A stretch of 59,822 nt of DNA from a virus (Duplodnaviria; Caudoviricetes). A model generated the notes under the pieces. It saw nothing but the letters and a program-made list of their open reading frames with translations, had not been told where the DNA came from and ran no database searches. The translations under genes and the position numbers were made by a program. Within the stretch, counting starts at the first letter, position 1; each line of letters opens with the position of its first letter. The DNA is taken from IMG/VR virus record IMGVR_UViG_3300017991_000120, positions 1 to 59,822 of that record; one strand, given 5' to 3'. Of the stretch, positions 2,876 to 41,488 are shown piece by piece.

Positions 2876-3274
2876 ATGGGTGCACCTAAACAGTACAAGT
2901 CTGCCGAGGTAATGGAAGCAATTGATGGAAGTGGCGGTATCATGTCTACCGTTGCCAGTAGATTAAAGTGTGATTGGCATACGGCCAAGAAATACACTGA
3001 AAAATGGGAGATGACAAAAATCGCATTGGCAAATGAAAAGGAGTTGGTGTTAGACCTTTGTGAAGGTGTCCTTTTACGCTCTATTCGTGGTGGAGATACA
3101 TCAGATGCGAAATGGTACTTGTCAACGAAAGGCCGATCACGGGGATTTGGTGCCCGGACCACCCTTGACCTCGAGGTTGATGACGTCAAGATTACGGAGA
3201 TTGAAGTTGACGTTGATCCCAATGAGGAGGATCGACTTTCAAAAATAAGGGAAGAAAATCCCGGTTTGGAGTAA
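2876..3274 (+). CDS. terS: terminase small subunit (putative)
   Basis: HTH-like N-terminus, 'AKWYLSTKGRSRGF' segment, position immediately upstream of TerL. Confidence 0.65.
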   Translation: MGAPKQYKSAEVMEAIDGSGGIMSTVASRLKCDWHTAKKYTEKWEMTKIALANEKELVLDLCEGVLLRSIRGGDTSDAKWYLSTKGRSRGFGARTTLDLEVDDVKITEIEVDVDPNEEDRLSKIREENPGLE

Positions 3275-38821: not shown

Positions 38822-39158
38822 ATTCGGTATTCAAAATACCAAGGAGCTTATTAAGTTTGGAGCAACGTTGGCCCACTTGGGTTTTGATTTAAAAAATGGT
38901 TTCCAATTGGATGAGGAAATTCCAAACCTCATTGCCGCCGGAAGTGCTGCCGTTCCCGCCCTCGATGAATTCGATAAAGTCGATGATGAACTCCTCGACC
39001 TTGCACCGGAGGAATTGGAGGGGCTGGTTGCCTATACCGATTCACTTTTGGACGATTTGGACTTCGTCGTTGACGACACCCAAGCCGCCATGTTAGATTT
39101 TATCAACGGCGCGTTGGTCATCACTCGCGGTGCCATGAAATTGAAAAAGAAATCCTAA
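38799..39158 (+). CDS. hypothetical acidic helical protein
   Basis: AAGGAAGG SD then ATG at 38799. Confidence 0.6.
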   Translation: MKTLMIGEFGIQNTKELIKFGATLAHLGFDLKNGFQLDEEIPNLIAAGSAAVPALDEFDKVDDELLDLAPEELEGLVAYTDSLLDDLDFVVDDTQAAMLDFINGALVITRGAMKLKKKS

Positions 39159-39185
39159 GCCACTTCTTGCGGCTTACCTCCAAAA

Positions 39186-39218
39186 GATGGCAGTTCCGAG
39201 GCGAGCGGGACTGCCATC
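39186..39218 (+). terminator. GC-rich hairpin ending the late operon
   Basis: GATGGCAGTTCCG / CGGGACTGCCATC stem; no strong U-tract. Confidence 0.45.
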
Positions 39219-39293
39219 CTGCTAAATTTCTCACACTGATTTTGGTCAAAACTTGTAAAATCCAACAGTTTTTAAACTTTACAAAAAAAGTTC

Positions 39294-39322
39294 TTGCATT
39301 CTCGGTTTTAGTTCCTTATACT
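39294..39322 (+). promoter_or_regulatory. sigma70-type promoter for the RNA-cassette/vWA operon
   Basis: TTGCAT-17 nt-TATACT preceded by AAAAAAAGTTC. Confidence 0.75.
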
Positions 39323-39406
39323 TAATGGCGTTGAAAAACGTGACTTTCATTTCTTGTCGAACGCGAGGCTCTCCGCCGAGCTTCGCGTTTTTAAAACGAA
39401 AAAAAT

Positions 39407-39491
39407 AAGCGAAGGCGTTTTTGGTTGTTATAGAACCCGTTTGTGCAAAAACGCTTGTCCTAAAAAGCAACCGACCTTTACTTCGCTTTTT
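39407..39491 (+). ncRNA. RNA cassette 1: conserved closing stems with a short hairpin insert
   Basis: AAGCGAAG/CTTCGCTT outer stem; GGTTGTT-A-TAG...CTA-AAA-AGCAACC inner stem; 3' T run. Confidence 0.65.
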
Positions 39492-39498
39492 AAAATAT

Positions 39499-39737
39499 AA
39501 AGTATCAAGGCGTGGGCGTTGTTATAGCGTTCGGAGGTTCGAATCCTTCCGTCCCCCCAATTTTTTTCTACGTCAACCCTTCGGGGTCTATCGACCGTCC
39601 AACAGAAAAAAATAGGGGTCGCCGGTTCCCCTGAAACCGGCATTTAACATGGGGGACGTACCCAAGTGGACAAGGGACTGTTTTTAGGAAACAGCAATAG
39701 CATAAAATCGCAACGGCAAAATTCTTGATACTTTTTT
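39499..39737 (+). ncRNA. RNA cassette 2: circularly permuted tRNA-Leu(TAG)-like RNA
   Basis: The 3' half (GGAGG-TTCGAAT-CCTTC-CGTCCCC, 39533-39556) precedes the 5' half (GGGGACG-TA-CCC-AAGTGGACAA-GGG-A-CTGTT-TTTAGGA-AACAG, 39652-39694). Enclosed by AAAGTATCAAG/CTTGATACTTT and CGTTGT/GCAACG. Confidence 0.8.
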
Positions 39738-39745
39738 AAAGACAT

Positions 39746-39901
39746 AAAGCGACGAAAGCGTCACGGTTGTTATAGGTAAGGTTAGAACATTGGTCTCGTA
39801 AACCAAGGGTCGCCGGTTCAACTCCGGTCCACAGACTTCGGTCTGAGGTAGTTCAGTAATAAACTAAAAAACAACCTAAGATTTTTCGGCGCTTTTTTTT
39901 T
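39746..39901 (+). ncRNA. RNA cassette 3: circularly permuted tRNA-Thr(CGT)-like RNA
   Basis: GGTTA-GAAC-A-TTGGT-CTCGTAA-ACCAA-GGGTC-GCCGG-TTCAACT-CCGGT-CCACAGA-c-TTCG-g-TCTGAGG-TA-GTTC-AGT. Enclosed by GGTTGTT/AACAACC and AAAGCG/CGCTTT; long T run follows. Confidence 0.8.
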
Positions 39902-39946
39902 GCCCATAAATAATTGGAACCGCAACATTAATTCACGGAGGTACAA

Positions 39947-41488
39947 ATGAAGGATTTCTTGGAACTCGTCGATTTTGACCAAATGCCTGATTTGTCGAAC
40001 TTCGTTAATTCCTTGCAAAGCATAGCGAGAGCGACGCACCACGAGGATAAAGATGAAGTCGAACAGGCGTTGATTAAACGTCACCAAGAAATGTTCCTTG
40101 CCGACCGAGGCGTCTATACCTTGCTTTTGAGTTTGGCGGGATCAGAAAACCACATCACCACAGGCGTTGGGCTTTTATTCGGTCTACCGGATGAGGGCTT
40201 GAATATGCCAAAGTCTTTGGAGACGTTGATCATCAAGGACTTGCTTAAACGTGTAAAAATCACTCAACTCCTACGGTTTTATGTGGACTTGGCCGATGCC
40301 AAAATTAATAACAACCGCGCGCGAAAAGTGATACTCCGCTCGTTTTTTGATGCTGAGGAAAAAGACTTGACGTGGTGGGCTGTTAAGTACAAAACCAAAC
40401 TTCGCTATATCATGAACCACTTTGTGGGAAATGATCAGATTGGCTATGTTATTTCCATTGCCAAACGGTATGCAACGGAAAGAATGTGTCTCCCCGATGA
40501 TTGGGCAAAGGTTGCACGGTTGCTCTTTATGTCCAAAGAGATCCAAGGGTGGCACTTGGAAACCATCGCATTTATCAACAATGTCAATGGCGTTTATTCT
40601 TCACCACTGTTCCGTGCCTTTCAGGAAGCCAAGCGAGATATTACCAAAGGCGCATCATTGCCGCCGGAGGTATTGGAAGGTATTCGATCCGTTTACCATC
40701 CAAGCGTTCCACATGCCGAGGTTTTAAAGTTGACAGCAAAATCGGCCACAAAACAGCAAACAGTTCGCAAGCAACGGGAATATGAAAAGGCTGGTGTAAA
40801 GGTTGATGCCAATTGGGATTCGATGGCGATGCATGAATTGATCAAAATTGTTTACGAATGGCATAAAGACAAAAAACCACTGCCCGAAGATATTATGACC
40901 GTGCTCCACAACAAGGCAAAAAAAGTTGGTGGTGAGCTTAGCTTCCAAGCTATAAAGGCCGGTATTTTAGTAGACAATTCGTTTAGTGGAAGCGGTGATC
41001 AAGAGACCGCTTTGAACGATCCTATTTCAAAAATACTGTCCTTGCGGTATGCGTTGCAGGAATATTTCCACCAACAAGAAATACCTTTTGTCACGGAGTT
41101 TGTCACACAAGGTCGAAACAATTATGGTCTGCCTGTTGTCGCAGGAGAAACCGATTTGGCAACACCGTTTATTGATTTGGTCTATGAGGATTGTGATGTC
41201 ATTTATGTATTGTCCGATGGACGTGACAATGCTCCTGCAGGACGGCTCCAAGAGGTTATTGGACAGTTAAGGTTAATCAAAAAACTGCCTACTGTTTACC
41301 ATTTCAATCCTGTTACCGGTGGAGAGTCGATTGTTAAGTTGGATAAGGATATTCCTACCGTTGGCTATGCCAAAGCCGAAGGTTTTCAACGGACTGTCTT
41401 TGCAAGTATTTTGGTCGCTGAACCAAAAACAGCATTGGCACAGATTCTCAACGATTACAAGTTATTGGCAGAAAGGAGTTCCAAGTGA
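39947..41488 (+). CDS. alpha-helical + vWA (MIDAS) domain protein, Ro60/TROVE-like architecture
   Basis: C-terminal vWA MIDAS residues LVDNSFS, GETDL, VLSDG; long basic helical N-terminal region (NNNRARKVI, WWAVKYKTKL, LPPEVLEGIRS). TROVE relationship inferred from architecture only. Confidence 0.7.
   Translation: MKDFLELVDFDQMPDLSNFVNSLQSIARATHHEDKDEVEQALIKRHQEMFLADRGVYTLLLSLAGSENHITTGVGLLFGLPDEGLNMPKSLETLIIKDLLKRVKITQLLRFYVDLADAKINNNRARKVILRSFFDAEEKDLTWWAVKYKTKLRYIMNHFVGNDQIGYVISIAKRYATERMCLPDDWAKVARLLFMSKEIQGWHLETIAFINNVNGVYSSPLFRAFQEAKRDITKGASLPPEVLEGIRSVYHPSVPHAEVLKLTAKSATKQQTVRKQREYEKAGVKVDANWDSMAMHELIKIVYEWHKDKKPLPEDIMTVLHNKAKKVGGELSFQAIKAGILVDNSFSGSGDQETALNDPISKILSLRYALQEYFHQQEIPFVTEFVTQGRNNYGLPVVAGETDLATPFIDLVYEDCDVIYVLSDGRDNAPAGRLQEVIGQLRLIKKLPTVYHFNPVTGGESIVKLDKDIPTVGYAKAEGFQRTVFASILVAEPKTALAQILNDYKLLAERSSK

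Follow-up and report, generated by a model that had tools for sequence, protein, structure and literature searches.

What is a tailed phage doing with an RNA that carries the parts of a transfer RNA (tRNA) in rearranged order and closes off the end at which a tRNA would be charged? This question is raised by the Caudoviricetes record IMGVR_UViG_3300017991_000120, a complete-looking sequence (CheckV 100%) whose whole length of 59,822 bases is the window analysed here. Three tandem RNA modules built on one common structure, the handle, lie in a 790-nt gap without long open reading frames (ORFs) at 39160-39946, between a 131-aa ORF and a 513-aa ORF. All three lie 5' of the 513-aa gene, and the last of them, module 3, ends 46 nt before the start of this gene on the same strand (Table 1). 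An initial annotation, made from the sequence alone, had described module 3 as a permuted, sealed and non-chargeable tRNA mimic, and had proposed that neighbouring modules captured their tRNAs independently into one scaffold. The first part of this interpretation stands; the second names only one of the origins that a duplicated D 3' strand in bacterial relatives suggests. The fold of module 3 is encoded and conserved, and its genes are linked to genes for a Ro60-fold protein and an ARPP-1 protein. We consider it probable that module 3 is a Y-RNA-like partner of a diverged Ro60/ARPP-1 particle, in which it displays a non-chargeable mimic of tRNA-Thr(CGU).

All the elements attributed to module 3 are found in the claimed order at 39765-39876, at exact canonical tRNA spacing. 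The anticodon loop and the T arm are intact as annotated, each with a 7-nt loop on a 5-bp stem. The bases of the tRNA core are all there (U8, A14, R15:Y48, G18G19, G53, T54, T55, C56, A58 and C61), the anticodon loop has U33 and A37, and the scaffold interrupts the D loop by ~40 nt. The acceptor end is sealed, as had been proposed, by a TTCG loop (39837-39840) closed by a C-G pair (39836/39841) on an 8-bp stem with a single A.A mismatch (39831 vs 39846). It lacks a discriminator, CCA and any RNase P leader, and because this end is closed, module 3 cannot be aminoacylated as encoded. The permutation point also differs from that of module 2, whose anticodon arm carries TAG at 39685-39687 and whose body is opened in the variable region.

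Folding calculations and tRNA finders agree with a tRNA-Thr(CGT)-like fold opened in the D loop. The RNAfold centroid is the permuted cloverleaf, with a free-energy z-score of -2.51 and 2 of 200 shuffled sequences folding as well. Pair probabilities are 0.88-1.0 in the handle stem, 0.74-0.98 in the acceptor hairpin, 0.71-0.99 in the anticodon and T stems, and ~0.55 in the long-range D stem. Module 3 forms no contiguous cloverleaf with a free 3' end, and ARAGORN, which finds four ordinary tRNAs elsewhere in the window, makes no call there; it does call tRNA-Thr(cgt) after the halves have been fused in silico at the D loop. The Rfam tRNA model matches 39766-39833 at 30.0 bits (cut-off 29), but it takes the handle for an acceptor strand and leaves four acceptor and two D pairs non-standard. 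Besides this match, Rfam at E ≤ 10 returned only noise, the permuted model of transfer-messenger RNA scoring 13 bits (cut-off 47).

The same topology recurs in other phages. It was sought with a strict detector: besides a T arm and an acceptor hairpin whose loop measures 3-39 nt, a correctly spaced anticodon arm must be present, and the D 5' strand must complement the 4 nt that precede the anticodon stem with one base between. Across 39 sequences (341,519 bases), this yielded nine forward matches, none on the reverse strand and three in 20 rounds of shuffling. Matches L012 1732 and L038 1439 were set aside as tandem tRNAs, and L018 2724 for a 38-nt gap after a called tRNA. The six clean modules that were kept are that of the window and five further ones in four phage loci (L006 2142-2213, L009 1533-1604, L010 159-229 and 337-407, and L012 77-163). 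ARAGORN calls none of them in native order but, once they are un-permuted in silico, recognises every one as a tRNA: Thr cgt, Trp cca, Phe gaa, Trp cca, Tyr gta and Ile gat. The initial annotation had asked for homologues with other anticodons; there are thus five different anticodons among six modules, and none of the six has a CCA at the acceptor.

An alignment of the six modules (A3) reveals the covariation in the arms that had also been sought. In A3, 99.2% of cells are paired, compared to 31-49% in slid controls, and double-sided changes occur at 16 of 21 pairs, including 3 of 4 in the D stem, 5 of 5 in the anticodon stem and 5 of 7 in the acceptor. Compensatory changes are found in all four helices; the D stem is 100% paired although its strands vary (GAAC/GTTC, AAGC/GCTT, GAGT/ACTC), and 97.6% of acceptor cells are paired. 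The paired percentage is partly circular because the detector required pairing, unlike the compensatory changes and the slid controls, which are not circular; the untrained module set described below therefore weighs more. Conservation extends to the tertiary core, with A14 in 6/6 modules, U8 in 4/6, a GG that precedes the D 3' strand by 2-3 nt in 5/6, and G53, T54, T55, C56, A58 and C61 invariant in the T arm. At positions 15:48, read directly from the alignment, G:C occurs once, A:U four times and U:U once. A covariance model built from A3 (R1) scores its training modules at 78.9-99.2 bits, the next match, at 51.7 bits, being a pair of tandem tRNAs. In 80 unrelated viral loci, which together amount to 759,150 bases, R1 has no match at E ≤ 1e-9.

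Two of these modules also bear on the anticodon itself. The stretches L006 2134-2219 and L009 1525-1610 are 94% identical, with five differences over 86 nt, and yet carry the anticodons CCA and GAA. Two of the three anticodon bases differ, accounting for two of the five differences (hypergeometric P = 0.008, for one pair chosen post hoc). That modules so nearly identical differ in their anticodon hints that the anticodon is read in these mimics.

Relatives of the 513-aa protein are not confined to phages, and their loci supply the untrained set. They occur in complete chromosomes of Minicystis rosea, Novipirellula and Stieleria (loci including L180, L181 and L186) and in many assemblies of Planctomycetota, Myxococcota, Bacteroidota and cyanobacteria. 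In 53 bacterial and archaeal genome loci encoding a relative, R1 gave 40 matches at E ≤ 1e-6. Among the best 18 of these, which were inspected, 11 have no ARAGORN overlap, and each of the 11 has a sealed acceptor hairpin after the T arm; the other seven overlap ARAGORN calls, and two of them (L180, L202) were kept in the resulting alignment. This alignment, A6, comprises 15 matches (14 distinct) from 10 loci, among them three lower matches from beyond the inspected ones (L202 1506, L198 6031 and L180 2354). In A6, 96.5% of cells are paired (slid controls 32-51%), and double changes are found at 14 of 21 pairs, including 6 of 7 in the acceptor hairpin. The best 11 A6 matches, at 2321-2843, lie on the gene strand within 700 nt before the gene start at 3001. 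The module nearest to module 3 in the bases around the D strands is that of L169 (2531-2649).

The bacterial modules also bear on how the permutation arose. In three myxobacterial modules (L198 2321-2420, L185 2407-2505 and L180 2726-2830), the D 3' strand and the next base (..GACA) are duplicated, with one copy before the anticodon arm and the other after a local D loop. A duplication of this kind would be expected had the permuted form descended from a tandem tRNA pair. Since the D 3' strand stands on both sides of the junction, the break point of the family ranges from the D loop to the gap between the D and anticodon arms. The initial proposal of independent captures is one reading among several: a D strand on both sides points to a break point that slides, or to an origin from tandem tRNAs, no less than to separate captures.

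What joins these modules is the handle. A box plus inner-stem strand of 11 nt occurs in three copies in the record (39423, 39517 and 39765), with no further copy on either strand or in a control. As each copy has its own matching 3' strand, three modules were defined. A handle alignment of 35 nt ending at a TAYAG box, with 21 rows (the three window modules and 18 from nine phage loci), is gap-free; its rows have in common a GG(A)C box, rich in purines, that lies ~10 nt upstream, and the fifth base ahead of the TAYAG box is G in all of them. Rows were chosen by eye and by the TAYAG box, which leaves only columns outside the box informative. A 14-base handle pattern gave at least 120 single matches in viral contigs that behaved like chance, R1 being negative in the 80 loci listed, and a crude search for a stem plus TAYAG box was dropped as too noisy to count. 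The cargo mounted on the handle varies across loci: whole tRNA-like bodies fastened by their acceptor end (L032, L011, L015), bodies whose opening lies in the variable region (L005, L006, L007, L008, L009, L015) or between the D and anticodon arms (L015, L034), and bodies opened in the D loop. What serves module 3 as scaffold is this handle, which a Y-RNA-like family linked to a Ro60-fold protein has in common.

Several side observations concern other tRNA-like cargo. The ~95-nt insert of module 2 (39557-39651) carries an 85% copy of the module 3 variable loop and T-stem strand (39609-39628 vs 39800-39819), another UUCG hairpin (39576-39587) and, in competition with the acceptor stem, an inverted repeat of 15 nt. 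At ~2300-2900 in many of the loci L005-L047, just 5' of the Ro60-like gene, ARAGORN makes calls in which the anticodon is uncommon or the loop has 6 nt (Asp atc, Thr agt, Cys aca, Tyr ata, His atg, 'Stop' tta, '???' tc), which are probably handle-mounted mimics annotated as tRNAs. Locus L001, from a 462-kb uncultured phage (GenBank LR756500.1), has two tRNA-like genes (860-1000 and 1253-1400) ~3 kb upstream of its Ro60-like gene, matched by Rfam at model positions 6-65 and 9-63 only, with inserts of ~60-70 nt that repeat a motif between the 5' acceptor strand and the D arm.

The putative protein partner was identified from its predicted structure. The AlphaFold (AF2) model of the 513-aa protein (predicted local distance difference test, pLDDT, 83.1; predicted template modelling score, pTM, 0.73) is helical to about residue 330 and alpha/beta thereafter, and combines the helical-repeat ring and the vWA domain, with its MIDAS (metal ion-dependent adhesion site), that are characteristic of Ro60/TROVE proteins. 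The top eight Foldseek matches in the PDB are all Ro60 structures aligned over full length (E 7.2e-06 to 1.2e-03, TM-score 0.45-0.55), from human, Xenopus and the Thermus phage phiLo; rank 9 falls to E = 0.048. Matches in a viral structure library include entries named 'Ro-like RNA binding protein' and 'TROVE domain-containing protein'. Within the family, D343, S345 and S347 are conserved, and vWA families match 9 and 6 of 23 members, weakly, both signals falling in the C-terminal third. At E ≤ 0.001, a large protein collection contains 24 relatives, of which the nearest shares 47% identity; in metagenome contigs, no close relative was confirmed, all 62 pattern matches being unconfirmed.

The ARPP-1 gene overlaps the end of the Ro60-like gene, and an ARPP-1 homologue lies directly downstream of the Ro60-like gene in 44/44 loci examined (six duplicates included). 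ARPP has been described as an enzyme-like domain with conserved Cys and Gln residues, perhaps acting on ribose moieties (PMC9503650), and C99 and Q101 are invariant in our alignment of 14 ARPP-1 sequences. The same study (Iyer et al. 2022) gives other ARPP neighbourhoods, and its available text contains no occurrence of TROVE or Ro60. Structure prediction of a Ro60-like/ARPP-1 complex supports binding of the two proteins, with a score of 0.67 against 0.00 for the best of three controls, agreement between runs on at least 85% of contacts, and partner pLDDT of at least 80. In a benchmark that is only roughly valid here, as custom alignments were used, 58 of 80 solved complexes attain this score, as do 2 of 110 mismatched pairs. 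The predicted interface places ARPP-1 residues 15-20 and 180-186, stretches that include the invariant G14, Q17, G20 and E183, on MIDAS residues 345-347, 399-403 and 426-433 of the vWA domain, and ARPP-1 may thus be a ligand of the MIDAS face.

Table 1 Coordinates of the RNA modules, the elements of module 3 and the adjoining genes in the window.
Feature	Position	Strand	Description
Module 1	39404-39491	+	Same handle; small hairpin cargo, no tRNA-like part
Module 2	39499-39734	+	Same handle; T arm, 3' acceptor, ~95-nt insert, 5' acceptor, D arm, anticodon arm
Module 3, whole RNA	39746-39901	+	Outer stem, handle, permuted tRNA-like domain, T run; ends closed together in RNAfold
Outer closing stem, 5' strand	39746-39762	+	Pairs with 39880-39895 (RNAfold); holds GACGAAAG at 39751-39758
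Handle, inner stem 5' strand and TTATAG box	39765-39771; 39770-39775	+	From sequence and alignment
D loop, 3' half	39780-39784	+	GG..A, equivalents of G18 G19 .. A21
D stem, 3' strand GAAC (22-25)	39785-39788	+	4/4 Watson-Crick pairs with 39851-39854
A26	39789	+	Single base before the anticodon arm
Anticodon arm	39790-39806	+	5-bp stem, 7-nt loop; anticodon CGT (Thr) at 39797-39799
Variable loop	39807-39811	+	5 nt; last base C48 can make a Levitt pair with G15 (39856)
T arm	39812-39828	+	5-bp stem, 7-nt loop TTCAACT
Sealed acceptor hairpin	39829-39848	+	3' strand 39829-39835, C-TTCG-G 39836-39841, 5' strand 39842-39848
U8 A9 (TA) and D stem 5' strand GTTC (10-13)	39849-39850; 39851-39854	+	From sequence
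A14 G15 and A-rich linker to handle 3' strand	39855-39869	+	A14 invariant in A3
Handle, inner stem 3' strand	39870-39876	+	7 bp with 39765-39771
Outer stem 3' strand, then ten T	39880-39902	+	Candidate transcript end or attenuator
Ro60-fold protein, 513 aa	39947-41488	+	Helical-repeat ring and vWA domain with DxSxS
ARPP-1 protein, 339 aa	41485-42504	+	Pfam PF20208, E = 2.8e-24; start overlaps end of Ro60-like gene

Several observations weigh against reading module 3 as a D-loop-opened mimic held by a Ro60-type protein. On the protein side, the Ro60 identity rests on a predicted fold at a TM-score of ~0.5: the 513-aa protein belongs to no Pfam family, none of 23 family members matches TROVE at E ≤ 1, and searching the PDB with a profile gave no match at E ≤ 10. 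On the RNA side, the Rfam YrlA model of bacterial Y RNAs (RF02553, gathering score 69 bits) has no match at E ≤ 10 in the whole record, and the window handles read GGCGT or AGCGT where relatives read GGAACT or GGACT. The training set of R1 is small, with two of its six modules 94% identical, and alignments fitted by a covariance model are biased towards the structure of that model. Finally, several bacterial modules have a complete local D arm, so that the D-loop break point is not universal, and in the minimum-free-energy fold of module 3 itself a local 5-bp hairpin (39849-39866, probability ~0.35) replaces the long-range D stem.

The last two points would also fit the same RNA and the same partner with another topology, in which the D 5' strand folds locally, as this hairpin or as a 3-bp GTT/AAC arm, GAAC at 39785-39788 is left single-stranded, and the body is opened between the D and anticodon arms. 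The fold with the local hairpin is the more stable by calculation (-43.0 vs -39.7 kcal/mol), and complete local D arms follow the sealed acceptor in L015 (two modules), L034, L198 and L192. The local hairpin nevertheless consumes U8 and A9 and has a loop without GG, whereas the upstream strand of module 3, which follows directly on GG..A, sits at exact tRNA spacing and makes 4/4 Watson-Crick pairs, against three pairs locally. The long-range pairing covaries between modules, and L010 (329-413), L012 and L202 have no local partner as judged by eye. We therefore regard the local D arm as unlikely for module 3.

The position of the modules raises a further alternative, namely that they act from within the leader of the Ro60-like/ARPP-1 mRNA as signals for its processing or stability, akin to tRNA punctuation, with no function as free RNAs. 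A promoter-like sequence read by eye (TTGCAT-17-TATACT, 39294-39322) lies on the strand of the modules and genes, which places three modules between it and the coding genes; in a consensus scan for promoters and terminators, 39100-40000 had no site on the + strand. RNase P and RNase Z process tRNA-like structures, and the modules might be substrates of this kind. The sealed acceptor, however, lacks the ends that these enzymes read, and the ten-T run after module 3 is likely a transcript end or attenuator, which suggests that the RNA ends before the gene. Elsewhere, in both phages and bacteria, modules stand up to 2 kb off and interleaved with tRNA genes, and a leader function would leave the conserved handle and the varying anticodons unexplained. 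We consider this explanation improbable. The 787-nt RNA region has no DNA match among 50,697 phage records, and a listing of sequencing runs includes no RNA run containing the locus, only one DNA run, which may be the source sample, and another with a small share of it.

Even less probable, in our view, is a true permuted tRNA-Thr gene, from which the handle would be excised and the ends joined, the acceptor being opened by RNase P and RNase Z and CCA added. Module 3 does have the full tRNA core, ARAGORN accepts its joined form, NCCA follows the 3' acceptor strand in other modules (L015, L008 and module 2 of the window), and the YrlA RNA of M. smegmatis is cleaved by RNase P and gains CCA (PMC4201824). 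But the acceptor ends in a closed 4-nt UUCG loop on an 8-bp stem and has neither discriminator nor CCA nor RNase P leader, its stem has an A.A mismatch, and CCA is found at this place in 0 of 6 modules of this topology. Moreover, no RNA ligase or splicing endonuclease was found among the adjoining ORFs searched, and the handle structure is conserved along with the protein partner. A functionless, decayed tRNA gene beside a chance hairpin, which could account for an Rfam score of only 30 bits with broken acceptor and D pairs, is scarcely credible given the same topology with compensatory changes in phages and bacteria, the lack of detector matches on reverse strands, and the linkage to one gene pair in 44/44 loci.

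If module 3 is a Y-RNA-like partner of the Ro60-like/ARPP-1 particle, its parts can be assigned tentative roles. The three modules would probably be transcribed together, from the promoter-like sequence to the T run. The handle, consisting of the long closing stem, the purine-rich box and the inner 7-bp stem with its TTATAG box, would dock on the Ro60-like ring. The interior would adopt the L-shape of a tRNA, with four helices and the contacts U8-A14, G15:C48 and G18G19 with the T loop, the chain entering and leaving through the D loop and UUCG closing the acceptor end. Module 3 would thereby display a complete anticodon arm (CGU, Thr) together with the T arm and elbow. By analogy with Ro60 and Y RNAs, the handle would be the protein-binding end and the tRNA-shaped interior the effector end, and the mimic might recruit to the particle, or else sequester, some factor that recognises tRNA, such as PNPase, a nuclease or a modification enzyme.

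More speculatively, and with considerable doubt, the Ro60-like/ARPP-1 particle of phages and large-genome bacteria could carry exchangeable sealed mimics with real anticodon loops as specific baits. Each mimic would then intercept or report a factor that reads one anticodon arm, for example an anticodon nuclease of host defence, and the intercepted factor might be delivered to the ring and the ARPP-1 enzyme for destruction or repair. The anticodon change between L006 and L009 and the five anticodons among six modules fit selection on bait specificity.

These RNAs form a branch in which a mimic retains a full anticodon arm whose anticodon changes from module to module, and in which one tRNA body is set on one handle at various break points. 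With three RNAs and two proteins in a 60-kb phage, the locus represents a small defined system for questions about Y RNAs: what the tRNA-like end targets, whether an anticodon is read, and which role the vWA/MIDAS face of Ro60 plays. What the tRNA-shaped end of Y RNAs does was itself left open by Chen et al. 2014 (PMC4201824). For genome annotation, tRNA finders either miss such RNAs or label them as tRNAs with odd anticodons.

Module 3 can be compared with four known systems. It shares with canonical tRNA-Thr(CGU) (RF00005) the four helices at standard lengths and spacing and the core bases of the T and D loops, and differs from it by rotated halves, a UUCG-closed acceptor and an interrupted D loop. 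Permuted tRNA genes of the red alga Cyanidioschyzon merolae mature to working tRNAs via a circular intermediate with a removable linker at the acceptor end. As in these genes, the 3' half of module 3 is encoded upstream of the 5' half; unlike in them, the linker is a tight 4-nt tetraloop and a conserved handle tied to a protein stands at the junction. The literature covered holds no description of the module 3 handle, its topology or the Ro60-like/ARPP-1 pairing, the supplements of PMC4201824, with their phage YrlA candidates, being outside this scope.

Among Y RNAs proper, YrlA RNAs are described as having a T arm, a sealed acceptor stem-loop and a D arm between Ro60-binding strands, and more than 250 bacteria and 22 phages encode them next to Ro60 and on its strand (PMC4201824); the structure of this tRNA-like fold is known (Wang et al. 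2018, 10.1101/312249). As a family, they are bound by Ro60 (Rsr) and bear the tRNA modifications pseudouridine 55 and dihydrouridine. Module 3 likewise lies beside a Ro60-type gene on the same strand, among several tandem Y-like RNAs, and combines a closing stem with a rotated tRNA-like domain in which the acceptor stem-loop is sealed between T and D elements. It also shares a 15:48 Levitt pair alternating between G:C and A:U and the lack of a free CCA end (PMC4201824). The sequence GACGAAAG (39751-39758) fits the motif GNCGAAN0-1G, which stands near the 5' end of YrlA (PMC4201824), in one of the three window modules and plausibly by chance, modules 1 and 2 having only partial matches. In YrlA, however, the scaffold replaces the anticodon stem and there is no anticodon loop, whereas module 3 keeps the full arm, and its scaffold enters via the D loop and splits the D arm across the ends of the domain. 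The module 3 handle is a stem with a TAYAG box, its putative protein partner, a Ro60 fold that has diverged far, has no TROVE match by sequence, and its family is always paired with ARPP-1. We set module 3 apart from RF02553 because this model is unmatched, the anticodon arm is kept, the handle differs and the protein falls outside TROVE.

The phage phiLo Ro60 with Yrl1 and Yrl2 (PDB 9L5Y) provides the other Ro60 comparison. There, RNAs were picked by a CGAA motif and a stem-bulge-stem structure, and the available text of the report uses 'tRNA-like' 0 times and mentions no ARPP-1 partner (PMC12135203). The phiLo Ro60 protein binds two Y-like RNAs encoded upstream and also the host PNPase (PMC12135203), and a phage Ro60 with Y-like RNAs upstream of its gene is the arrangement predicted for our window, in line with the match of the 513-aa model to 9l5y_B (E = 1.2e-03).

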